From the NCBI GenBank assembly GCA_964527215.1, contig CAZGNZ010000001.1, positions 1,276 through 65,275 on the forward strand: a DNA stretch of 64,000 nucleotides, in the 5' to 3' direction. How positions within the stretch are numbered: position 1 is the first letter of the stretch; each line of letters begins with the position of its first letter. This DNA comes from an uncultured bacterium. GTDB lineage: Bacteria > Fidelibacterota > Marinisomatia > SCGC-AAA003-L08 > JACNLC01. The notes below the pieces were generated by a model. That model searched no databases. It was given only the letters and a program-made list of their open reading frames with translations, and was not told where the DNA came from. This document shows positions 7,088 through 51,008 of this stretch, one piece after another. The translations under genes and the position numbers were made by a program.

Positions 7088-7160
7088 GGGGATATAGCTC
7101 AGTTGGGAGAGCGCGTGAATGGCATTCACGAGGTCAGCGGTTCGATCCCGCTTATCTCCA
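7088..7160 (+). tRNA. tRNA-Ala (anticodon GGC at 7121-7123)
   Basis: 73-nt cloverleaf. Acceptor GGGGATA/TATCTCC includes the G3:U70 alanine identity pair. Anticodon arm CGTGA-ATGGCAT-TCACG, T-arm GGTTCGATCC. CCA is not encoded. Confidence 0.95.
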
Positions 7161-8840: not shown

Positions 8841-8881
8841 GAAAAATGGAGACCGGAGCGTCAGGATTGAGTGACGGCGGC

Positions 8882-9955
8882 ATGTCAATGGAGCACTATA
8901 TGACAGAAGCTGTCAGGGAAGCCTGGAAAGGGTGCGGACAGGTATCTCCCAATCCGATGGTGGGCTGCCTGATTGTAAAAAACGGGCACATTATCGGCAG
9001 AGGATACCATCGTCAGTACGGCGGCGCGCACGCTGAAGTCAATGCTTTGGAAAACTGCAGTGAATCTTCAGCCGGAGCTACGGCCTATGTTACACTGGAA
9101 CCCTGCAGCATTACGGGTAAAACACCGCCGTGCTGCGATCGTCTGATCAGTGCCGGCATTGCCAAAGTGGTTGTCAGCACTCGGGATCCCAATCCTGCAA
9201 TTAACGGAAACGGCATACGCCGGCTGCAGAACGCCGGGGTGGAAGTGGTGGAAGGCATACTTCAGGATGAAACCACTCGCCAGAATCGCGGATTTTTGAA
9301 ATGGATCAGAACCGGTCTGCCTTGGGTTGTCGCAAAAACAGCTCAAACCGAAAACGGGTTTATGGGATTGGATTCCAGTTCCAGAATTCAGATCACCGGC
9401 CGGGAAAGCATGTGTTCAGTACATCAGCTGAGAAGCAGAGTGGATGCCGTAATGGTGGGAAGGCAAACCGTGGAAACGGACAATCCTCTGCTTACTGTCC
9501 GTCTTGCTGCTGGTTCGAATCCAAAACGAATTGTGATAGACCCGCAGCTTCGTCTGCCGCAAACCTGCAGTATCTTTCGAGATCAGAAAGCGGAAACAAT
9601 TGTTATCTGCAGCGATGCCGGATCGCCGATGGGCCGGTGTTCATACTGCCGATATTTGCCGCTGCGTGTTGTAAACGGTGTGATACCGCCGCCGGTCATC
9701 CTGGAAGCACTGGGAAAACTTGGGATTACAATCCTGATGATTGAGGGCGGACCTGCACTGCTTCAGATTTTTAAATCATTTGACATGATTGACGAAATAC
9801 ACCAGTATACCGCACCGGTCACCCTGCCAGGCGCAATATTGAAGAATCCTATCTCTATTGATGATAATTGGAATATCATTTCGGAACAGCAAACCGGAAA
9901 TGATCAATTGTTGATTGCAGAAAAAAGGACATCGTATGTTCACAGGAATTGTTGA
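8882..9955 (+). CDS. ribD: Bifunctional riboflavin biosynthesis protein RibD (pyrimidine deaminase / uracil reductase)
   Basis: Motifs NPMVGCLIV, HAEVNAL and LEPCSITGKTPPCC. The track start 8846 lies next to the upstream terminator, so I prefer ATG 8882. Confidence 0.9.
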   Translation: MSMEHYMTEAVREAWKGCGQVSPNPMVGCLIVKNGHIIGRGYHRQYGGAHAEVNALENCSESSAGATAYVTLEPCSITGKTPPCCDRLISAGIAKVVVSTRDPNPAINGNGIRRLQNAGVEVVEGILQDETTRQNRGFLKWIRTGLPWVVAKTAQTENGFMGLDSSSRIQITGRESMCSVHQLRSRVDAVMVGRQTVETDNPLLTVRLAAGSNPKRIVIDPQLRLPQTCSIFRDQKAETIVICSDAGSPMGRCSYCRYLPLRVVNGVIPPPVILEALGKLGITILMIEGGPALLQIFKSFDMIDEIHQYTAPVTLPGAILKNPISIDDNWNIISEQQTGNDQLLIAEKRTSYVHRNC

Positions 9956-10592
9956 AGAACTCGGAACAGTAAAAAAAGTAATGGAGACATCCTCCGGCAA
10001 GCAGTTTGTCATTAAAGCCAAAACCGTGATGGATGATCTGCAGATTGGTGACAGTATTGCCGTCAACGGTGTTTGCCTGACGGTTGTGAAAACCACCAAA
10101 ACTACGTTTACACTGGATCTTGTATTTGAAACCCTGGATAAATCGAATCTGGGTGAAATGGAAGTGGGAACTCAAATCAATCTGGAGCGAGCTCTTACCC
10201 TGTCCACTCGTCTGGGGGGGCACATCCTTCAGGGACATGTGGAAACGGTGGGAGTGATACTGGACAAGGAAACCAGCGGAGACGGTGCAACCATGGTCAT
10301 CGGTATGGATCCATCCTGGCTGCGGTACTGCATCCCAAAGGGGTCTATTGCACTTGACGGTGTTTCACTCACCATTGCGTCTATGAAAGACAATCTCATC
10401 ACCGTGGCATTGATTCCTCATACGCTGGAATGCACTACGCTTGGTTTCAAGGAAAATGGTGCCACGCTGAATGTTGAAACGGATATCATCGGGAAGTATA
10501 TTGATCGGCTGCTCAGCATCGATGAAGATGAGGACGAGACCGGAGATACATACATGACCGGGTTAATGACCTGGGGGATAGGTGAGAGCTGA
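9936..10592 (+). CDS. ribE: Riboflavin synthase (alpha chain)
   Basis: Canonical N-terminus MFTGIVEELGTV and internal repeat GDSIAVNGVCLT / GSIALDGVSLT. Overlaps the ribD end by 20 nt. Confidence 0.9.
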   Translation: MFTGIVEELGTVKKVMETSSGKQFVIKAKTVMDDLQIGDSIAVNGVCLTVVKTTKTTFTLDLVFETLDKSNLGEMEVGTQINLERALTLSTRLGGHILQGHVETVGVILDKETSGDGATMVIGMDPSWLRYCIPKGSIALDGVSLTIASMKDNLITVALIPHTLECTTLGFKENGATLNVETDIIGKYIDRLLSIDEDEDETGDTYMTGLMTWGIGES

Positions 10593-11836
10593 TGAAAAAA
10601 GATTTTAATACGATTCAGGAGGCCGTACGGGAAATTGAAGCCGGCCGTATGGTTATTGTTGTGGATGAGGAAGATCGCGAAAATGAAGGCGATTTTATCA
10701 TATCGGCAGAGTTGGCAACACCGGAAGACCTGAATTTCATGATGACGGAAGGACGGGGACTGATCTGTATTTCCATTCCTCTAGAAAAAGCCCGTCAGCT
10801 GGAACTTACACCCATGTCTTCCAGCAACACTGCGCTTCATGAAACCGCGTTTACGATATCGGTAGATGCTGTTAAAAACACGACCACTGGAATATCCGCA
10901 AATGATCGATGGCAGACAGCTCAGGTGATTATGAAACCTGATACGGTACCGTCAGACCTGGCTCGTCCGGGTCACATGTTTCCTTTGATTGCCAAGGGAG
11001 GCGGCGTGCTGCAGAGAGCCGGACATACGGAAGCAGCGCTGGACCTTATGGAGCTGGCGGGTGTTTCACCGGGCGCTCTGCTGGTGGAAATCGTGGATAC
11101 CGACGGCAGTATGGCCAGAGTGCATCGCCTGAAGGAAATTGCGGATCGGTTCAACATGCCCATCATAACGATAGCTGATCTGATCAAGTATCGCCGCAAA
11201 CATGATAAAATGGTCACGGAAATGACAGCCATCCCGTTTCCGTCAAAATATGGGAATTTCCAACTCCGTCTGTTTGAGGATGTTGTTAACCACGACCACC
11301 ATGTGGCTATTGTAAAAGGAGATATCCAGCCGGATGATGATGTTCTGGTCAGGGTTCACTCCCAGTGCCTGACCGGTGATCTGTTCGGTTCCCTGCGCTG
11401 TGACTGCGGAATACAGCTGGAAACCGCGCTTACCCGAATTGAAAAGGAGGGGAAAGGCATTGTGGTGTATCTTCGTCAGGAAGGACGCGGTATCGGTCTG
11501 AAAAATAAAATAATGGCCTACCAGCTTCAGGATAAGGGATTGGATACCGTCGAAGCCAATCACCGATTGGGATTCGCCGATGATCTTCGTGAATATGGGA
11601 TAGGGGCCCAGATCCTGCTGGAGTGCGGAGTTCGTAAAATGAGACTTCTCACCAATAATCCTCGAAAAATCGTAGGTCTTGAAGGATACGGACTGGAAGT
11701 CACCGGACGCGAACCCATTGAAATAGAACCCAATGTAATAAATAAGCGGTATCTGGAGACCAAACGGGACAAACTCGGACATTTGATCCTGATTCACGAA
11801 AATTCAAACAACACAGATAACAATACCGATGATTAA
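10592..11836 (+). CDS. ribBA: Bifunctional 3,4-dihydroxy-2-butanone-4-phosphate synthase / GTP cyclohydrolase II
   Basis: DRENEGDFI (DHBP synthase) and [21 protein letters not shown] (GTP cyclohydrolase II). ATGA overlap with ribE. Confidence 0.92.
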
Positions 11837-12293
11837 AGGTGAGTTGACTGCAAAAAACCGCTGCATCACCATCGTCGCAGCCGAATTCAACCCGCATGTC
11901 ACCGGAGCCCTGGTTAACGGAGCAACGGATGCATTCCTGTTTCACGGTGGGCAGGCGGATAATCTGGAGCTGATCTGGGTTCCCGGTGCTTTTGAAATCC
12001 CCGGGACCGTACAGCAGATTCTGAACAGCAGCCGGCGGACCGATGCCATTGTGACTCTGGGTGCAGTAATCCGCGGCGGCACCCCTCATTTTGATTTTGT
12101 GGCCGGGACTGCCGCGGACGGACTGGCGGAACTTTCCCGCACTGCAGATATCCCTGTCATTTTCGGAATTCTGACCACCAATAATCTAAACCAGGCACTT
12201 GAGAGGGCCGGGACCAAAGCCGCCAACAAAGGCTGGGAAGTTACGGAAGCCGCGCTAAAAATGATTTCTGTCTATGAACAGATCGGTCAATAG
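11829..12293 (+). CDS. ribH: 6,7-dimethyl-8-ribityllumazine synthase
   Basis: 154 aa. VPGAFEIPG, LGAVIRGGTPHFDFV and NKGWEVTEAAL are typical of lumazine synthase. Confidence 0.9.
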   Translation: MIKGELTAKNRCITIVAAEFNPHVTGALVNGATDAFLFHGGQADNLELIWVPGAFEIPGTVQQILNSSRRTDAIVTLGAVIRGGTPHFDFVAGTAADGLAELSRTADIPVIFGILTTNNLNQALERAGTKAANKGWEVTEAALKMISVYEQIGQ

Positions 12294-17937: not shown

Positions 17938-19290
17938 TTACCGGTTTTGCTGAAGAATGAAAAGGATCAGGCTGACCGTTAGGCCCGGGTACAGCGGTTC
18001 AACCCCGAACGGATAGACCGGCCAGCCGCCAACTGCGTTCAGCATTCCGTAAATGGTCCAGGCCAGGGAAACGGTCAGTGCGGAGCACATCACCATCATC
18101 GGATGCCTGATTGGTTTGCGGTACATGGCAGCCAGCAGCGGAACCAGCAGCACCGGTACCGCCAGCGAGCCCACGGTGTACCAGATATCCACAACATGGC
18201 GGAACCATCTGGCGATCACTATCGCAGCAGCTCCGGTGATGAGAAGCCCCCATCGGGTGAGCAGGGTGCTGTTGAGTCTGTAAGATTCTCCGAACAGAAT
18301 TTCCGGCAGATCCTTTCCGATGGTATATGCGCTGATAAAGGTAAAACTGTCCACTGTGGACATTACTATCGCGAAGAGAGCCGTGATAAACAAAGCCCGC
18401 GACAACGGGGGAAGAATACGGTCAGCCAATGCCAGGTAGGCGTTTGAGGCAGTGTCTGCCGGCAGAATGGCGGATGCATAGATACCGGTAAAGACGGTTA
18501 GGAAATCGAAAATCAACCAGAAAAGGATTGAAATCAGAATACCTTTCCTGACAGTTGCCTGCGAGTTTCCTGCAAAACAGCGCTGATAGAATCCCGGATC
18601 GATAAATGTAACCAGAGCGATGAAGCCCCAAACCAGAATATAGGTCCAGCTGAGTTTCCCGGGAACGGCAAAGGCGTGTTCCGGGGCGTTTTCACTCAGG
18701 AACTCCCATCCGCCGTACTGAAATACCGCCGTCCCGAGAATTACCGAAAAGCCAAGGAACATCAGAATAAACTGAAAACGATCGGTCCGCACGACCGCAC
18801 CGAATCCGCCGATGACGGCATACACCACGGAAAGGCTCATTCCGATGGTCAGGGCTGCAAGTTCCGGAATATTCCAAATGTGACGGAACAGAACGGCCAG
18901 TATTTTCACATAAGGTGCCGGTGATACGATCAGAAAGACAAAAACAAGCCCCAGAAGCGCAGCTGTCCGGCCGTAATGATGGTGCAGGAATTCGGGAATA
19001 GTGCGAATATTCTGTCGCTGGATGCGGGGGGCAATGGTGAAAACAAACAGCAGGGCGGCTGCATAATAGAATACCCCGAACAGCAGCCAGGTGACAATAC
19101 CATTCTCAAAGGTAAACCGGCCAACCTCCAGAATCCCGCCATACCAAGTGGTGACAAGGGTGGCCACAAATGCCGGTACGGTGAGTTTGCGTCCAGCAAA
19201 CAAGTACGAATCCGGATCTGGCGGAGAACGACGAATGATGCCGATGAAAAGAACAGCTGCAAAATATGTAATGACAAACAGTGAAATCAC
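17938..19290 (-). CDS. Sodium:solute symporter family (SSF) transporter; candidate ThiV-like vitamin-precursor importer
   Basis: 450 aa, GTG start, about 12-13 TM. SSF-type N-terminus YLFAGRKLTVPAFVATLVTTWYGGILEVG. The ThiV-like role is inferred only from its position downstream of the TPP-riboswitch-controlled receptor. Confidence 0.75.
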   Translation of the reverse strand: MISLFVITYFAAVLFIGIIRRSPPDPDSYLFAGRKLTVPAFVATLVTTWYGGILEVGRFTFENGIVTWLLFGVFYYAAALLFVFTIAPRIQRQNIRTIPEFLHHHYGRTAALLGLVFVFLIVSPAPYVKILAVLFRHIWNIPELAALTIGMSLSVVYAVIGGFGAVVRTDRFQFILMFLGFSVILGTAVFQYGGWEFLSENAPEHAFAVPGKLSWTYILVWGFIALVTFIDPGFYQRCFAGNSQATVRKGILISILFWLIFDFLTVFTGIYASAILPADTASNAYLALADRILPPLSRALFITALFAIVMSTVDSFTFISAYTIGKDLPEILFGESYRLNSTLLTRWGLLITGAAAIVIARWFRHVVDIWYTVGSLAVPVLLVPLLAAMYRKPIRHPMMVMCSALTVSLAWTIYGMLNAVGGWPVYPFGVEPLYPGLTVSLILFILQQNR

Positions 19291-19498
19291 AAGAATGCCG
19301 CCTTTGGTTTATACCATCCGTGTAGCGGCGGCAGGCATGAATAATATTCGTAGTTCTGGTTTGCGGTTAACCGAATACGACTTTTTTTCAGCAAACATGA
19401 TCGATTCCTGTATTGAGGAATTGCCGGCATATCGCGGAGTTTTCCAAACATTTTTCCAATACAAAGCATTGATGTCACTGCTGACATGCAGTTTCTGA

Positions 19499-21853
19499 TT
19501 ACAGACGGTAATCAATCCCGAAATACACATTCCGGGTTGCTCCGGGCCAATAGTAGCCGTCTCCCCATAAATAGCCATATGTTTCATACAGCGTATCAAA
19601 TATGTTGTTGGCTTTCAGCTGCAGCGTAGCAGATCCCAGCCTGTACTGTGCTGCCAGATTCACCACGGTATATGCATCAATGGCAGCGTAATCAGTGTTA
19701 TCAGCATCCAGGTATTGTTTCCCCGTGTGCTGAACAGCAACGGTGAAATCCATGTACGATGCAGGCTGATACCCGGCAGTCAGGTTTACCAGCAGATCCG
19801 GGACGACAGGCAGAACATTGTCTTTATGATCTCCCTCGGTGTACGTATTGTTGGACTTACTGCAATTCAGGCTGAAGTTCAGTTGATCAGACATGCTCCA
19901 GCTGGCTTCCATTTCCAATCCGGTATGCAGGGTTCTGTCTGCAGATTCAATATCAAAATCGGATTCTTCGAAATTATAGATATTGGACATTATCTCATTT
20001 TCGTACCGAATGTAGTAAAAATTACAGGCCACCATCCACAATTGACGGTCCATTGAAAATCCAAGCTCAAAATCATCGATTTTTTCAGGTGCGGCATTGT
20101 TGGGGGTTTCAAAAAGTTTATCTGCCTTGAGAATCTGTCCGTCTGACGGTTCTTTTTGAGCGATGCCGTAGCTGCTGTAGAAATTCAGGTCAGGGGTGTG
20201 GCGGTAGTAGAGTCCGATCCGCGGATTGAAGAAATCCCAGTCTGCTTCAATGTTATACCCTGAAAAATTCCCAATTTGATCCTGGATCAGATTCCAGTCA
20301 TGGCGTTGATACTGAAGGTCTGCTGTAGCCGTAAACTTGCCGTGCGTCAGAACGTTGTGGATGAAGGCAGTCTGGGATGTCTTCCGTCCGGAATAGCTGT
20401 AGTATCGATAGATATCGGGAATTATTTCATCAAATTCCGGATGATCCAGCTGATGAAGTTCACCGAAGTGCTGGCCTTCATATTGACGCATTTCCAAACC
20501 TGCATCAATTCGCCAGTTTTGTCCGGTATGACTGAGTGTGGGCACAATTCCGTAATAGTGGTTTCGAATCCAGCGTCGTTTATTGAATTCAATGAGATCG
20601 CTGTCCTGAGTCGGAGTGTCGGGATAGTAGAAATCCAGGTTCAGCTGGGCAAGGCTGGTGTCCCGAAACGCCTGGAAACCAGCATGGGAATCGTTTACAT
20701 CATAGTAGCAGTAATCAGGTGAACCGTAATATCCGCTTCCGGTCACCAGATAGGCAACGTTTCGCAGCATGGTGTTTTCCGAGAGAAAGAAAGCCGAGTT
20801 GAAACTGTAGATCTGCTGCAGAAAATCATCAACAAACGGTATGGACCACAGCATTTTTTCGGTCCTCAGATCCCGGTCATCCGCCATTTCCCGGCTGATT
20901 CCATCCCAGATAAGATGGCTGCGCTCCTTTCCAATGAGCATCCTGAACTGGTTTCTGAATGCACCCGAGTTTGCTTCAATCCCCGCTGAAAATGCAGTCT
21001 GTCGGGAATCGGAGTATTCACGATATCCATCGCTGGTCACGTTGGATACTCTGAATGAGGCACTCAGGTCTTCCCCCAGGCGTTTTCCGGTCTGATACCG
21101 GATATTGGCCTTTTGGGTATTGTAGCTGCCGCCCAGTACCGAGATCGCCAGCTGCTCCTCATCGGACGCAATGCGGGTCTGAACGTTTATGGACCCGCCG
21201 AAGGACGCAGCCCCGTAAAGACTGTTGCCTACACCGCGCTGGATGACCACCTCATCAGCATCGGCAAGAATATCACCGTGGTCCACCCAGTACACCTGAT
21301 GGCTTTCATTATCGTTCAGGGGAACGTCGTCAATCATAACGGCGATGCGGCTTTGGTCGAACCCGCGAATTGAGACGTAGGAATATCCGGTCCCGTTACC
21401 CGATTCACTGTACGCATATACACCGGGTTCGGATCGCAGAATCATGGGGACATCCTCTGCGGAATAGTGGCGGCTGATTTCGTCTTCGGTGAGTCTCGAG
21501 TGCGACACGGGGGTGATTCCCGGTACGATGCGGGTAGCGGAAATCTCCAGAGCCGGAATCTGTATCGCCTTTGGCTGTAAAAGAACAGTCAGAGTGGACG
21601 GACTGGCCGCCACGATGGTGGTTTCATATCCAATATGAGACACTGTAAATGCCCCTCTTACAGGGACTTCCAGACTGAAACGGCCGCTGGAATCGGTAAC
21701 TGTCCCTGAAACGTCAGTGAAAACATTGACTTCCTGAATCGGCTGACGGGTTGCGGCATCCAGAACGGTGCCTGAACATTGGATGGTTTTGCTTTGAGAT
21801 GCAAGAATTGAAAGAAGAAATGAAAAAAGCAGATACGGCAGAAACGAACGCAT
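19499..21853 (-). CDS. TonB-dependent outer-membrane receptor with N-terminal carboxypeptidase-regulatory-like domain
   Basis: 784 aa. Signal peptide, then CarboxypepD_reg-like GTVLDAATRQPIQEVNVF...GRFSLEV, plug region SYVSIRGFDQSRIAVMIDDVPLND, and C-terminal beta-barrel ending YFGIDYRL. Confidence 0.88.
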   Translation of the reverse strand: MRSFLPYLLFSFLLSILASQSKTIQCSGTVLDAATRQPIQEVNVFTDVSGTVTDSSGRFSLEVPVRGAFTVSHIGYETTIVAASPSTLTVLLQPKAIQIPALEISATRIVPGITPVSHSRLTEDEISRHYSAEDVPMILRSEPGVYAYSESGNGTGYSYVSIRGFDQSRIAVMIDDVPLNDNESHQVYWVDHGDILADADEVVIQRGVGNSLYGAASFGGSINVQTRIASDEEQLAISVLGGSYNTQKANIRYQTGKRLGEDLSASFRVSNVTSDGYREYSDSRQTAFSAGIEANSGAFRNQFRMLIGKERSHLIWDGISREMADDRDLRTEKMLWSIPFVDDFLQQIYSFNSAFFLSENTMLRNVAYLVTGSGYYGSPDYCYYDVNDSHAGFQAFRDTSLAQLNLDFYYPDTPTQDSDLIEFNKRRWIRNHYYGIVPTLSHTGQNWRIDAGLEMRQYEGQHFGELHQLDHPEFDEIIPDIYRYYSYSGRKTSQTAFIHNVLTHGKFTATADLQYQRHDWNLIQDQIGNFSGYNIEADWDFFNPRIGLYYRHTPDLNFYSSYGIAQKEPSDGQILKADKLFETPNNAAPEKIDDFELGFSMDRQLWMVACNFYYIRYENEIMSNIYNFEESDFDIESADRTLHTGLEMEASWSMSDQLNFSLNCSKSNNTYTEGDHKDNVLPVVPDLLVNLTAGYQPASYMDFTVAVQHTGKQYLDADNTDYAAIDAYTVVNLAAQYRLGSATLQLKANNIFDTLYETYGYLWGDGYYWPGATRNVYFGIDYRL

Positions 21854-21854
21854 T

Positions 21855-21950
21855 TGGTTTCCCTCCGCTAGAATTACCTAGATCAGGTTTTAAGGGTGTG
21901 ATCTCAGCCGCTTGCCTCAGGAAACACCGCAAACAGCACCCCTAACAACT
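21855..21950 (-). promoter_or_regulatory. TPP (thiamine pyrophosphate, THI-box) riboswitch
   Basis: Minus-strand RNA is AGUUGUUAGGGGUGCUGUUUGCGGUGUUUCCUGAGGCAAGCGGCUGAGAUCACACCCUUAAAACCUGAUCUAGGUAAUUCUAGCGGAGGGAAACCAAAUG. It contains the conserved GGGGUGC, CUGAGA, ACCCUU and AACCUGAUCUnGnUAAUnCnAGCGnAGGGAA blocks, with a compensated P5-type stem (CUAGGU/UCUAG) and an 8-bp variable P3 stem. Its 3' end carries the SD (GGAGGG) of the downstream receptor. Confidence 0.9.
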
Positions 21951-22003
21951 GGCGAAATTTAATCAGATACGGAGGAAAATCCCAATTGTGAAAATGCGTG
22001 GTA

Positions 22004-23317
22004 TCAACGATCGATATTCAGGCGGTAGTACTCGATCATGGCGGATAGGGAATGCTGTACATAATCGATTCGGAACTCTGTGTCCCGCGGTTTCTGCTTA
22101 TCTTTGGATTTAAACCAGTCTGGGTGCAGTCTGGGGAACGCCCCTGCCAGAGGTCCCCGAACCGACTGACCCGCAGTCAGGAAACGCAGACCTTCATCCA
22201 CAGCCGAATCGAATAAGGATGTGTCGTCAAGGAACCCGGCAGCTGCCAGAAGCCCCTCCAGTCGAGTGGCTGCCGGTGCAAGACGGCCGTCCCATACAAG
22301 ACATCCGGAATTTGGAAACAGATCATTGCATTCGCGAAACTCACTGGTGATCTGGCCGGCAATTTGTTTCGCATGATGACGGAGTGTATCGGAGATGGTC
22401 GGCTCCAGCTCCGGACTGGTATCAAGCAGTTTTCGAGTAGCGATAAGGGCCCAGTGATCAGCGGGAACGACAGAGTCATTGTACCGGCTTCGGGATAGAA
22501 ACAGCAGGGCGTTCAGTGCAGAATTCCGCCATTTCGGATCGGGATCAATATCATGGAGCATTAACAGTCCCAACGCTGCCTCTCCCGGGTAGTACAGTGA
22601 ATGCCAGGACAGATCTCTTCCGCCGTGTCCCGGACGATAACGGGACACAAATCCGCCGTTTGGCTGCTGCATCCACAGAAGAAATGAACCCAGTGCCTGC
22701 AGTGTATCCAGACCAATAAACTCCGAATCCCGGACTGCCAGTCCGGCAAGGGCAACCAGTCCCAGCCCTGTGCCGCCCAGCTTGGCCTGATAGGGGTTTT
22801 TGTTGTTGGTGATTTTTGGGACGGACCAGACTGCTTTCAGGCTGGACTCAAACTCCAATCCCTGGATGGTATTGTTTTTCAGAAATTTTCCTGCATTGCG
22901 AAGGGATTTGGAATGAGATTCGTTTTTAAGAATTCCGGATTCGTAGGTATCCATCGCATACATCGTTCCGGCATGCCTGAGGATATTATACTTTTTGCCT
23001 GCGGGGTAATTCAGATTTGGATTGGCGGCATATCTGAACTGGCCGTTTTGATCCACGGATTCTGATATATATCTGTAGGCCAGAGACATCCTGTCTTCAA
23101 GGAAACTTCCGGTCAGTTCGATGATGTCTCTGTCGAATTGATCCAGATATGCTGGTCTGTCAAATAGAATTTCCTTTTGGTTCATCTGATTAAAATTCAA
23201 AGTGGATTCATGCAGAGAAGAAATCTTTTTATCCTGCAGAACAGTGTAGATTATGGTGTTGACAGCAAAAATCCCTACGGCAACGGCAAGAAATCGAATG
23301 ATGTGTTTTTTATTCAT
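22004..23317 (-). CDS. Membrane-anchored protein of unknown function, alpha/alpha-toroid-like repeats (six-hairpin/terpenoid-cyclase-like fold suspected)
   Basis: 437 aa. N-terminal TM IIRFLAVAVGIFAVNTIIYTVL. Recurrent helix-hairpin motifs: NILRHAGTMYAM, GGTGLGLVALAGL, QQPNGGFVSRY, YYPGEAALGLLML. Confidence 0.4.
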   Translation of the reverse strand: MNKKHIIRFLAVAVGIFAVNTIIYTVLQDKKISSLHESTLNFNQMNQKEILFDRPAYLDQFDRDIIELTGSFLEDRMSLAYRYISESVDQNGQFRYAANPNLNYPAGKKYNILRHAGTMYAMDTYESGILKNESHSKSLRNAGKFLKNNTIQGLEFESSLKAVWSVPKITNNKNPYQAKLGGTGLGLVALAGLAVRDSEFIGLDTLQALGSFLLWMQQPNGGFVSRYRPGHGGRDLSWHSLYYPGEAALGLLMLHDIDPDPKWRNSALNALLFLSRSRYNDSVVPADHWALIATRKLLDTSPELEPTISDTLRHHAKQIAGQITSEFRECNDLFPNSGCLVWDGRLAPAATRLEGLLAAAGFLDDTSLFDSAVDEGLRFLTAGQSVRGPLAGAFPRLHPDWFKSKDKQKPRDTEFRIDYVQHSLSAMIEYYRLNIDR

Positions 23318-27170: not shown

Positions 27171-28151
27171 ATGTCACTTGAATTTGAAACGGTCTGTTGG
27201 TCAGAAGGATACAAGTTGGTAGCCGGTGTGGATGAAGCCGGACGGGGTCCATTGGCTGGGCCGGTGGTGGCCGCGGCCGTCATTTTTCCTAGGGATCTGG
27301 AACTTCCGGACATTCGGGATTCAAAAAAACTGACAGAGAAACGAAGATTGATTCTGTCGGAACAGATTCGCAGGAAGGCTTTGTCGGTTGGAACGGGGTT
27401 CGTTCATGAACGGAAGATTGACGAAGTCAACATTTTGCAAGCCACCTATCTTGCAATGCGGTCTGCAATCGGCGGACTGAAACCTCAGCCGGATTTTCTC
27501 CTTGTGGACGGAAATCCTGCCGACATCAGTCATTATCCCCAAAAAGCAATTGTGAAAGGAGATGCCCGATCACAGTCGATCGGTGCGGCGTCCATAGTGG
27601 CGAAAGTCACCAGAGACCGGATGATGCGCCAGTATGACCGGGTTTTCCCGGAGTACGGTTTCGCGAAGCACAAGGGATACGGAACCCGGCAGCATCTTGA
27701 CGCACTCCGTGAATTTGGTGCAGCAGCCATTCACCGCCGAAGTTTCAATCCCGTTTCGGAGTTCCGGCCGCGATGGGAAGATTACAGAAGTCCGGCACAA
27801 ATCGGCCGACTGGGTGAACAGCTCGCTGCCTGCGGGCTGATCAAACTGAACTGCGAGATTCTGGAACTGAATTACTCTCTGCCCGGTGTAGGTGAAATTG
27901 ACATCATTCACAGGGAATCCGATGGTACCGTTGTTTTCAGTGAGGTGAAGGCGGGATTGAACATGCACCGGAGTTACGATCCGCTGGAGCAGATTGATCA
28001 GCACAAACTTGACTGTCTCACGGATACTGCGACACGATATATCGAGGAAAAAGCAATCGGCGAAAAAGTCCGTTTCGATGTAATTTCCGTCCAATTTTCC
28101 AAACAAAAACCATTGATTAAACGTGTGAAAGGCGGATTGGCGATTGTATAA
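27171..28151 (+). CDS. rnhB: Fusion protein: ribonuclease HII (N-terminal) + YraN/UPF0102 endonuclease-like domain (C-terminal)
   Basis: RNase HII: GVDEAGRGPLAGPVVAAAV, DSKKL, LVDGN, HKGYGT..H...HRRSFNP. From about aa 205: GRLGEQLAACGL...LNYSLPGVGEIDIIHRESDGTVVFSEVKAG...HKL...RFDVISV matches the YraN family pattern. Confidence 0.85.
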   Translation: MSLEFETVCWSEGYKLVAGVDEAGRGPLAGPVVAAAVIFPRDLELPDIRDSKKLTEKRRLILSEQIRRKALSVGTGFVHERKIDEVNILQATYLAMRSAIGGLKPQPDFLLVDGNPADISHYPQKAIVKGDARSQSIGAASIVAKVTRDRMMRQYDRVFPEYGFAKHKGYGTRQHLDALREFGAAAIHRRSFNPVSEFRPRWEDYRSPAQIGRLGEQLAACGLIKLNCEILELNYSLPGVGEIDIIHRESDGTVVFSEVKAGLNMHRSYDPLEQIDQHKLDCLTDTATRYIEEKAIGEKVRFDVISVQFSKQKPLIKRVKGGLAIV

Positions 28152-29847
28152 GAAGATTCTGATATATCTGGTTCTCGGACTGCTTTCCGGAAGTTTCCTG
28201 CCTGCCTTTGAACAGATTCCTGACGCCGTGGGGCGGTTTGGCGCGGTCACATCCTCCAATCGGTATGCCTCGCAGGCCGGACTGGAAATACTCAAAGCCG
28301 GAGGCAACGCAGTGGATGCGGCAGTGGCAGTGGGGTTTGCGCTGGCTGTGGTACATCCCGGGGCCGGAAACATCGGCGGCGGCGGATTTATGGTGATACG
28401 CTTTGCAGACGGATCTGTCACGGCACTGGATTATCGGGAAACAGCACCGCAGGCCGCCTACAGGGATATGTTTCTGGATGACAGTCTGAATGTCATACCC
28501 GGAAAATCTTGGGAAACCTCATGGGCATCCGGAGTACCGGGATCTGTTGACGGAATGGGCAGGGCCCATAAAAAATTCGGGAAACTCAGCTGGAAGAAGG
28601 TGGTTCAACCGGCCATTCACCTTGCCGGCAAGGGATTTTATCTTGAACTGCAAAATGTCAAGAGCTTTCGAAAGTATAAAGAGTACTTGTCCCGGGACCC
28701 GGAAACCCGGGAAATTTTTACGAAAATCGATGATGAATTTGTTTTGGGAGAAAAATTCAAACAACCCGATCTTGCACATACCCTCAAACGGATTGCCCGA
28801 AAAGGATTCCGGGAATTTTATGAAGGAAAAACCGCAAAACTTATCATTGACTGCATGAACCGGACAGACGGTTTGATCACACTCGAGGATTTACAGAATT
28901 ACGAAACCCGTTTCAGGGAACCGATACAGTTTGAATATCGCGGATATACCGTATATTCCATGCCGCCGGCCTCTTCCGGAGGGATTGCTCTGGCAGGGAT
29001 TTTAAATCAGCTGGAAAATATCCCTCTGGGTGAAATACCTTTCCACAGTGCCGAACATATCCACTATGTTGCTGAAGCCGAACGCAGGGTCTATGCGGAT
29101 CGGGCCTATTACATGGGAGATCAGGATTTCGTGCCGGTCCCCATTGAAACTCTGACCGCACAGGAATATGCCGATCAGCGATGGGCATCTGTTGACAGCA
29201 CAAAGGCAACACCCAGCAGTACGATGACCCATGGTCCCATCCCGTTTCAGTATCCTGAATCGGAAGAAACAACCCATTATTCTGTGGTTGACCAGTGGGG
29301 CAATGCGGTTTCGGTCACCACAACCATCAATGGCTGGTTCGGAAACGGTATTACAGTGGATGGTGCCGGATTTCTTCTGAACAACGAAATGGATGATTTC
29401 AGCGCCAAGCCGGGTGTCCCCAATGCATTCGGATTGATTGGAGCGGAGGCCAATGCTGTCGAACCCGGTAAACGGATGCTCAGCTCTATGACTCCAACGA
29501 TTGTGGAAGATCCGGAAGGCAGCCTGTTTCTGGTTGTGGGTTCACCGGGTGGTTCAACCATCATTACGACTGTGGCTCAGGTCATATCCAATGTCGTTGA
29601 TTTCGGGATGAATATTGAAACCGCTGTCGAAGCCCCCCGGTTTCACCATCAGTGGCTGCCGGATTATGTTCGAGTGGAGCCGAACGGGTTCTCAATGGAC
29701 ACAATAAAAAAACTTTCTGAGAACGGGTATCAGTTCTATCAGAGAAACAGTATTGGAGAGGCCAACTGTATCCAGGTGGATCCGGTTACGGGGTATATTT
29801 ATGCAACCGGCGACAGTAGGCGCGGAGGTGCGGCACTGGCGTACTGA
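28144..29847 (+). CDS. ggt: Gamma-glutamyltransferase
   Basis: 567 aa. Signal peptide, then GGNAVDAAVAV, the autoprocessing/catalytic site EETTHYSVVD, and GSPGGSTIITTV. Confidence 0.92.
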   Translation: MYKKILIYLVLGLLSGSFLPAFEQIPDAVGRFGAVTSSNRYASQAGLEILKAGGNAVDAAVAVGFALAVVHPGAGNIGGGGFMVIRFADGSVTALDYRETAPQAAYRDMFLDDSLNVIPGKSWETSWASGVPGSVDGMGRAHKKFGKLSWKKVVQPAIHLAGKGFYLELQNVKSFRKYKEYLSRDPETREIFTKIDDEFVLGEKFKQPDLAHTLKRIARKGFREFYEGKTAKLIIDCMNRTDGLITLEDLQNYETRFREPIQFEYRGYTVYSMPPASSGGIALAGILNQLENIPLGEIPFHSAEHIHYVAEAERRVYADRAYYMGDQDFVPVPIETLTAQEYADQRWASVDSTKATPSSTMTHGPIPFQYPESEETTHYSVVDQWGNAVSVTTTINGWFGNGITVDGAGFLLNNEMDDFSAKPGVPNAFGLIGAEANAVEPGKRMLSSMTPTIVEDPEGSLFLVVGSPGGSTIITTVAQVISNVVDFGMNIETAVEAPRFHHQWLPDYVRVEPNGFSMDTIKKLSENGYQFYQRNSIGEANCIQVDPVTGYIYATGDSRRGGAALAY

Positions 29848-50923: not shown

Positions 50924-51008
50924 GCTGAAGTGGTGAAACTGGTAGACACGCTGTCTTGAGGGGGCAGTGGGAGAAACTCCCGTGCGGGTTCGAGTCCCGC
51001 CTTCAGCA
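50924..51008 (+). tRNA. leuU: tRNA-Leu (anticodon GAG at 50958-50960), class II with long variable arm
   Basis: Acceptor GCTGAAG/CTTCAGC, anticodon arm CTGTC-TTGAGGG-GGCAG, variable arm GGGAG-AAA-CTCCC, T-arm GCGGG-TTCGAGT-CCCGC. CCA is not encoded. Confidence 0.93.

Follow-up and report, generated by a model that had tools for sequence, protein, structure and literature searches.

In the thiamine pyrophosphate (TPP) riboswitch of Escherichia coli thiM, output depends on a separate expression platform, with an anti-Shine-Dalgarno (anti-SD)/anti-anti-SD helix coupled via a stable P1. Here we analyze a stretch of 64,000 nt (the window) from contig CAZGNZ010000001.1, belonging to an uncultured bacterium of the phylum Marinimicrobia, in which a TPP riboswitch on the minus strand stands immediately ahead of the gene for a TonB-dependent outer-membrane receptor (TBDR), followed by the gene for a transporter of the sodium:solute symporter (SSS) family. 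We put at about 80% the probability that this element is a TPP OFF riboswitch directly gating translation of the receptor, with the symporter as the inner-membrane step of uptake. The leader would then have the aptamer fold in common with thiM, and would likewise repress translation by concealing the SD; unlike thiM, it appears to have no platform, the SD is within the aptamer and P1 is vestigial. Its anatomy seems to fit a platform-less translational layout, with the ribosome-binding site inside the aptamer.

A precedent for such a layout comes from Bacteroides thetaiotaomicron, where OMthi and pnuT each have a TPP riboswitch that ends fewer than 5 nt ahead of the start codon and represses NanoLuc translational fusions once thiamine reaches 100 nM, while mRNA levels are constant (10.1101/867226). 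In 114 Bacteroidetes genomes, the mean distance from riboswitch to start codon was 21 nt for transporters, versus 60 nt for biosynthesis operons (10.1101/867226). The Bacteroides OMthi locus (BT2390, with riboswitch BtTPP2) resembles that of the window in layout and domains, with the aptamer right before a TBDR that has a CarboxypepD_reg-type N-terminus. Additionally, BtTPP2 and BtTPP3 act on translation and not on the mRNA level, and their host belongs, as do Marinimicrobia, to the Fibrobacteres–Chlorobi–Bacteroidetes (FCB) superphylum. The differences are that the window derives from Marinimicrobia, that it has an SSS symporter instead of PnuT, that its operon contains no tnr3 kinase and that its organism appears to use SD motifs.

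The same order of riboswitch, TBDR and sodium:solute symporter occurs in a sister FCB lineage, in the Caldithrix abyssi locus Cabys_3975-3977, which is annotated as thiamine uptake and contains a TPP riboswitch, a BT2390-like TBDR, a sodium-solute symporter as well as a thiamin pyrophosphokinase (PMC5317091). This likeness is one of layout; the riboswitch from Caldithrix is 163 nt upstream, with room for an expression platform, and the locus includes a kinase, whereas the aptamer from the window abuts the ATG and is not accompanied by a kinase. Among marine bacteria, putative B1 receptors of the omr1 type, whose specificity is unclear and which marine B1 studies score as a matter of routine, are found near a TPP riboswitch in SAR86, Flavobacteriales and others (PMC10881298; PMC12442306); they are of the same functional class as the window receptor, and these papers mention no symporter partner for them. 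TPP-regulated omr/Omr1/OMthi receptors, as well as a PanF-like thiV, were already noted in metagenomes in 2007, citing comparative genomics from 2002 (PMC2211319). Likewise, ThiV from SAR11 (SAR11_0811) is an SSS-family inner-membrane transporter controlled by a TPP riboswitch, and takes up hydroxymethylpyrimidine (HMP), not thiamine (PMC11452348); unlike the window symporter, it has its own riboswitch and no receptor. We found no report of an omr1-type locus, or of the riboswitch-receptor-symporter layout, in Marinimicrobia in the literature searched.

The Aptamer Abuts the Start Codon of a Receptor Gene

A cmscan comparison of the window against all 4227 Rfam families (Rfam 15) revealed a full-length match to the TPP family RF00059 (model positions 1–105) at 21953–21843 on the minus strand, with a P1-to-P1 core at 21948–21855. 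With 64.2 bits against a gathering threshold of 54.3 and an E value of 2.7e-10, the match bears out the TPP riboswitch proposed by a first-pass annotation made from the sequence alone, for which this comparison had been set as a check beforehand. Every hallmark block quoted in that annotation is present in the minus-strand leader: GGGGUGC at 21942–21936, CUGAGA at 21907–21902, ACCCUU and AACCUGAUCUAGGUAAUUCUAGCGGAGGGAA. In the cmscan alignment the optional P3a stem is missing, P3 contains a 16-nt insert and P4 consists of CCUG/GAGG with a G-G mismatch; just 4 nt separate CUGAGA from ACCC. The sequence GGAGG at 21866–21862 is made up of the 3′ strand of P4 plus the invariant AGGGA junction, and the ATG at 21853 is situated 1 nt past P1 and 6 nt past AGGGA. 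Judged by its family, the RNA ahead of the receptor gene is a genuine TPP riboswitch, and it is predicted to bind the ligand.

The gene that starts at this ATG (19499–21853, minus strand) codes for a TBDR of 784 aa. Its CarboxypepD_reg-like N-terminus, noted in the first reading, corresponds to Pfam CarbopepD_reg_2 (PF13715, residues 27–97), and is followed by Plug (PF07715, 114–220) and TonB_dep_Rec_b-barrel (PF00593, 361–751) domains. Comparisons with NCBIfam produced only sub-threshold matches, to models for siderophore, haem and B12 receptors, the best of which was to a siderophore-receptor subfamily (130 bits versus a cut-off of 223.5), and a PDB sequence search found no close solved structure. 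Orthologs with 39–50% identity occur throughout Marinimicrobia, and the named homologs among the top 120 (42–50% identity) are all from Marinimicrobia, Neomarinimicrobiota or Fidelibacterota.

The Riboswitch Is Linked to the Receptor across Marinimicrobia

A survey of receptor orthologs with one genome per species resulted in 80 loci, nearly all of them labelled Marinimicrobia or from MAGs/SAGs. With a relaxed regular expression for the core, the aptamer was found directly 5′ of the receptor gene and on the same strand in 35 of the 80 loci, with the ATG 6–8 nt past AGGGA in 34 of those 35. We next trained a covariance model on 36 leaders, imposing no pairing on P1, and it located the aptamer in this same position and orientation in 74 loci, at 62–116 bits. 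The other six contigs lack upstream DNA: two gave weaker or end-truncated hits, and the four without a hit begin inside the receptor gene or no more than 86 nt 5′ of the match. All the genome loci having upstream DNA, therefore, carry the aptamer (74/74), and the link between riboswitch and TBDR first noted in the window extends to every informative ortholog. Rfam's own TPP model confirmed the aptamer in five of seven related loci run (L003, L032, L081, L083, and L084). The distance from AGGGA to the ATG varied between 2 and 10 nt across leaders, being mostly 6–7 nt. Besides its leader aptamer, locus L032 gave a weak second match to our custom model (positions 12170–12260; 19.9 bits, E 0.001), which is probably due to chance because it does not reach the Rfam gathering score.

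The helices of the aptamer are maintained in these leaders. In an alignment of 36 of them (alignment A2), pairing reached 91.5% in P2, 95% in P3 and 91.7% in P4/P5, against 38–56% in slid controls. Changes on both sides were found for 11 pairs, versus 7.3 ± 0.8 in shuffled alignments, and none of 500 shuffles reached 11; compensatory changes were seen in P3. The covariation of the helices, together with conservation in all informative loci, indicates that the pairing of riboswitch and receptor is real, ancient in the phylum and under selection, and the linkage holds phylum-wide. In other genomes of the survey the receptor gene mostly precedes polA, an ABC ATPase gene or convergent genes, indicating that it is usually monocistronic in Marinimicrobia.

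A Symporter Subfamily Follows the Riboswitch and the Receptor

Downstream of the receptor gene, and on the same minus strand, the window contains a gene (17938–19290) for a 450 aa protein of the SSS family (PF00474), with weak similarity to PanF/PutP. The first-pass annotation had stated that no thi biosynthesis gene, PnuT or ThiT lies nearby, and overlooked this transporter at 19290–17938. As for the genes that it named, Pfam scans of 47 of the larger ORFs, which are spread over the window and include all but a few of those with 150 aa or more, detected neither a thi gene, for biosynthesis or for salvage, nor genes for PnuT, ThiT or a pyrophosphokinase.

All four symporter homologs examined individually (46–56% identity) directly follow a TBDR gene, with a gap of 0–73 nt. 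A metagenome scan with the symporter retrieved 80 further loci, of which we considered informative those whose upstream DNA extends for some 2.5 kb at least. In approximately 37 of 39 informative loci, the symporter homolog (40–64% identity) is directly 3′ of a TBDR gene preceded by a TPP aptamer, which lies 2.3–2.55 kb upstream of the symporter, on the same strand and with the TBDR ORF in between; the exceptions to this layout were L162, L163 and the end-truncated L155. The receptor located between aptamer and symporter is either of the type from the window or of a second family. The leaders linked to the symporter, including that from the window, constitute a riboswitch subclass with P5 formed by CUAG/CUAG and a GCGGAGG(A/G)AA tail. 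The symporter subfamily is, then, linked to the riboswitch and the receptor, and its position behind both in about 37 of 39 loci makes it the probable inner-membrane partner of the receptor, probably carrying the same substrate over the inner membrane.

The second TBDR family shows around 25% identity to the window receptor, across the N-terminal domain and plug alone. It is found in Marinimicrobia, with relatives in Gemmatimonadetes and Latescibacteria, and bears the same riboswitch subclass, the symporter gene always being next (loci L082–L084, L087, L097, L100, L109, L112–L115, L119, L120, L125, and L127–L160).

The spacer between the receptor and symporter genes of the window (19291–19498, minus strand) is unusually long, with 208 nt as compared with 37–98 nt in relatives. 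The ORF map and the sequence revealed no upstream in-frame start for the symporter within the spacer, and no T-tailed terminator was found on its minus strand. Neither here nor in the spacer separating the symporter from the following gene, for an oligopeptide transporter (OPT) family protein, was there any Rfam match, at E ≤ 1, to a second riboswitch or known RNA. A small hairpin, ACUGC-AUGUCA-GCAGU, occurs right past the receptor stop codon.

According to our proposal, the receptor would import thiamine or a thiamine-related compound, and the symporter, co-transcribed with it, would carry this substrate over the inner membrane. A tentative alternative, which we consider less likely than not, is that the substrate is not intact thiamine but a precursor or a degradation product, such as HMP, 4-amino-5-aminomethyl-2-methylpyrimidine (AmMP) or its N-formyl derivative (FAMP), or the thiazole moiety, to be salvaged into TPP. 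The sole characterized SSS transporter of marine bacteria linked to a TPP riboswitch, ThiV from SAR11, imports HMP (PMC11452348), the specificity of the marine omr1 receptors is marked as unclear by the authors (PMC12442306) and, unlike the Caldithrix locus, neither the operon nor the scanned ORFs of the window include a thiamin pyrophosphokinase. Nevertheless, the related systems from Bacteroides, through growth and competition data (PMC5613172), and from Caldithrix, through genomic inference (PMC5317091), point to thiamine. The symporter is also nearer to PanF than to ThiV: compared with the ThiV sequence given in the supplement of PMC11452348, it is 21% identical over 207 aa (E 5e-5), versus 28% for E. 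coli PanF, and we rejected its identification as a ThiV ortholog.

P1 Appears Reduced to a Stub and the Transcript Would Begin at the Aptamer

The P1 helix proposed in the first reading, UUGUU paired with AACCAA, is partly sustained by the window itself: in the cmscan alignment, the nominal 5′ strand UUGUU (21944–21948, minus strand) forms four of five pairs with AACCA (21859–21855), with one mismatch. It is not sustained by the family, since there is no covariation and the canonical P1 columns are paired in 43% of the cells from the 36 leaders, which equals the background of the slid controls. The innermost pair alone is retained, in 27 of the 36 leaders, such that the conserved stub spans 1–3 bp; the symporter-linked subclass, to which the window belongs, keeps a 3-bp P1 of GUU/AAC that shows no covariation. 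Duplex folding of the 22-nt flanks from 87 distinct leaders did not reveal a longer or shifted P1, the energies being no better than those of shuffled flanks (mean z +0.28), and an extended P1 was accordingly rejected.

A promoter-like box of the TAnnTT type, TAAATTT (21955–21961, minus strand), abuts the aptamer and resembles the −7 element of Bacteroidetes. Of 86 distinct leaders, 72 have a TAnnTT box that starts 10–26 nt 5′ of P2, versus 28.7 ± 4.1 in shuffles, and in 59 of the 86 the box is at 14–18 nt; it is also almost invariant in alignment A4. This distribution suggests that TAAATTT is a −10/−7 promoter element and that transcription would start a few nt before P2, downstream of the box. 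The lack of a long 5′ strand for P1 would then be explained because the mRNA would begin at the aptamer. In another group of leaders (L031, L033, L039, L043, L044, L050, L055, and L070), a conserved GUGAUGGUCC directly precedes the aptamer, before GGGGUGC; in the leaders with GUGAUGGUCC, it replaces the TAAnTTT-spaced arrangement and has no evident complement past AGGGA.

An ORF of 437 aa (22004–23317, minus strand), without any Pfam or NCBIfam match, is located just 5′ of the promoter region. It ends at 22004, 51 nt from the Rfam match, and no terminator is predicted, so read-through from this ORF into the riboswitch is possible.

A Shine-Dalgarno-Like Sequence Lies within the Aptamer

The SD-like sequence GGAGGG (21861–21866, minus strand) overlaps the 3′ strand of P4 and AGGGA, and ends 7 nt before the ATG, or 8 nt if counted from the GGAGG core. 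Its position inside the 3′ segment of the aptamer, already noticed for the window, is general: the aptamer 3′ tail contains an SD-like tetramer in all 87 distinct leaders (51 with GGAGG, 17 with GGAG and 19 with GAGG or AGGA), and the distance from the end of GGAG to the ATG, measured in 66 leaders, is 5–9 nt with two exceptions. The bases on either side of AGGGA covary. Where the tail reads GCG-G-AGGxA, the type found in the window, A or T comes next 28 times out of 30, yielding GGAGG; where it reads GCG-[A/U]-AGGGA, G comes next in 38 of 38, yielding GGGAG(G). These covarying bases that flank AGGGA are not demanded by the TPP consensus, which speaks for selection of the motif for ribosome binding. 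Additionally, tetramers GGAG, GAGG or AGGA occur at most 17 nt 5′ of the first ATG in 41% of the 44 long ORFs of the window, versus a 10% background, and SD pentamers precede the first ATG in 25% of them, versus 3.5%, suggesting that the host organism uses SD motifs.

It could be argued that GGAGG is conserved as aptamer core only, with no role in ribosome binding, and that repression results from burying the start codon and a standby region beside P1. AGGGA is invariant in the Rfam consensus of TPP aptamers whatever the output mechanism, and 59% of the window genes are not preceded by an SD tetramer. Such repression would be expected with SD-independent initiation like that of Bacteroidetes, which share the FCB superphylum with Marinimicrobia and for the most part do without SD-led initiation. 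We consider this explanation improbable, in view of the 4-fold and 7-fold enrichment of SD tetramers and pentamers, respectively, upstream of window genes, and because the covarying flanks of AGGGA always preserve GGAG(G), at a tight spacing from the ATG.

Translation as the Probable Level of Control

A terminator scan made no prediction either for the gap that separates the aptamer from the ATG or for the early part of the receptor gene. The gap is too small for a terminator or for an anti-SD hairpin, leaving direct translational control as the best model. Translational control had been proposed from the window alone; it is the sole mechanism that fits the anatomy of the leader, it has a precedent in B. 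thetaiotaomicron, and on these grounds we infer that OFF control by direct occlusion of the SD is the best-supported model. In essence, the uptake operon would have no 5′ leader other than the aptamer, which reaches the start codon with no separate expression platform. At high TPP concentrations, ligand binding would lock P4/P5 and the three-way junction, keeping the 30S subunit away from the SD and the start region; at low concentrations, the weak P4, of 3–4 pairs, would breathe and let translation begin.

Folding predictions did not discriminate for or against this scheme, and the comparison with and without the aptamer constraint that the first-pass annotation had suggested left the SD mostly paired in both cases. 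It should be considered that nearest-neighbor folding of the leaders leaves out the tertiary stabilization induced by the ligand. Unconstrained, the window leader had a minimum free energy of −34.6 kcal/mol, in a structure that retains P2/P3 and pairs GCGGAGG with codons 4–6, and the probability of the SD being unpaired was 0.17, versus 0.40 once the aptamer helices were imposed; the secondary structure of the aptamer by itself amounts to just −7 kcal/mol. In the ligand-free ensembles from 85 leaders, pair probabilities were 0.71 for P5 and 0.43 for P4, and the SD was unpaired with a probability of 0.28. The value for P4, near the midpoint, fits a switch tipped by the ligand but is no proof of one.

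Several observations weigh against direct gating of a two-gene operon. The folding models give no clean switch, and P1, which is the normal coupler of ligand binding to output, lacks family-wide conservation. With respect to the symporter, it comes after the receptor in just the five closest relatives among the 80 genome loci; situated 208 nt from the receptor gene, it could have its own promoter, and there is a weak promoter-like match in the spacer, at 19370–19341. Likewise, the symporter is not orthologous to ThiV, and phmmer reports PanF alone.

Control might also be exerted mainly on the RNA, with TPP causing premature Rho-dependent termination or mRNA decay within the receptor gene. In E. 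coli, riboswitch mRNAs under translational repression become substrates for Rho, and a Rho effect would also account for polar control of the symporter across the 208-nt spacer. In B. uniformis, moreover, thiamine reduces the OMthi-pnuT mRNA around 3-fold (10.1101/867226). Even so, we give control on the RNA slightly less weight than a GGAGG without ribosome-binding function, because no intrinsic terminator is predicted, only 1–6 nt separate the aptamer from the ATG, and a Rho effect would follow blocked translation and not replace it. Finally, we regard as effectively refuted the reading of this protein as a common receptor for siderophores or iron, with a riboswitch match that is a coincidence or a relic. 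In its favor are the label "iron complex outermembrane receptor protein" given to homologs by the Joint Genome Institute (JGI) and the best NCBIfam match, far under its cut-off, to a siderophore-receptor subfamily; against it, all 74 informative orthologous loci retain the aptamer, with its distance from the ATG fixed, and a second, unrelated TBDR family of the phylum has the same riboswitch.

Gene Content around the Locus

Beyond the symporter, the minus strand continues with co-directional genes, identified from Pfam and NCBIfam, for an OPT-family transporter (17756–15858) and an adenosine deaminase (ADD; 15808–14753). A block containing the OPT and ADD genes plus a gene for an 829-aa product is divergent from the receptor gene in approximately 40 other Marinimicrobia loci, indicating that the OPT and ADD genes are probably outside the regulon, and we rejected them as members of it. 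In two loci with the second receptor family, L083 (1–2279) and L084 (1–2513), the module of riboswitch, TBDR and symporter is flanked by genes for RNase HII and gamma-glutamyltranspeptidase; the same gene pair is found in the window at 27171–29847 (plus strand), about 5 kb from the riboswitch. In appearance, the window locus joins the context of the RNase HII side to that of the OPT-ADD side, as if fused through an inversion or through replacement of the receptor gene.

The window also includes a riboflavin operon (8846–12293, plus strand), with ribD, riboflavin synthase, ribBA and lumazine synthase genes, and no flavin mononucleotide (FMN) riboswitch was detected in its 64 kb at the Rfam gathering score. 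Apart from the TPP riboswitch, the sole gathering-level Rfam matches in the window were tRNA genes at 7088–7160 and 50924–51008 (plus strand), the second with a long variable arm.

Implications for Vitamin B1 Acquisition in Marinimicrobia

The arrangement described here is already known from related bacteria and, since the same design has been described in Bacteroides and Caldithrix, current understanding is unchanged; our additions are modest. They include the universality of the riboswitch-receptor pairing across the phylum, the occurrence of two unrelated receptor families under one switch and a distinct symporter subfamily tightly linked to them. To these can be added a leader that, as deduced from the aligned sequences, appears to have a vestigial P1 and no platform, with an SD within the aptamer preserved by covariation. 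Such an all-aptamer leader with an internal SD offers a convenient natural system in which to study translational control without a platform.

Microbial communities of the sea are shaped by vitamin B1 traffic. Marinimicrobia (SAR406), of whose B1 strategy little has been documented, abound in oxygen-minimum zones and the dark ocean. The phylum-wide pairing with a riboswitch marks the receptor family as B1-related, contrary to its current iron annotation, as it does the SSS subfamily, and both the receptor and the symporter can join the genes scored when marine B1 is surveyed. More speculatively, and with considerably less confidence than for the gating of the receptor by TPP, this could be a stripped-down switch, with essentially no P1 and no platform, in which the transcript starts at the aptamer, the conserved P4/junction sequence also serves as the SD, and docking of the two sensor arms, induced by the ligand, is enough to gate the ribosome; it would serve a two-membrane route of uptake that has not been characterized before. 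Such a route may be composed of one of the two unrelated receptor families plus the PanF-like SSS subfamily, distinct from ThiV. If true, one of the most abundant phyla of the deep ocean would be dedicated to scavenging vitamin B1 or fragments of it.

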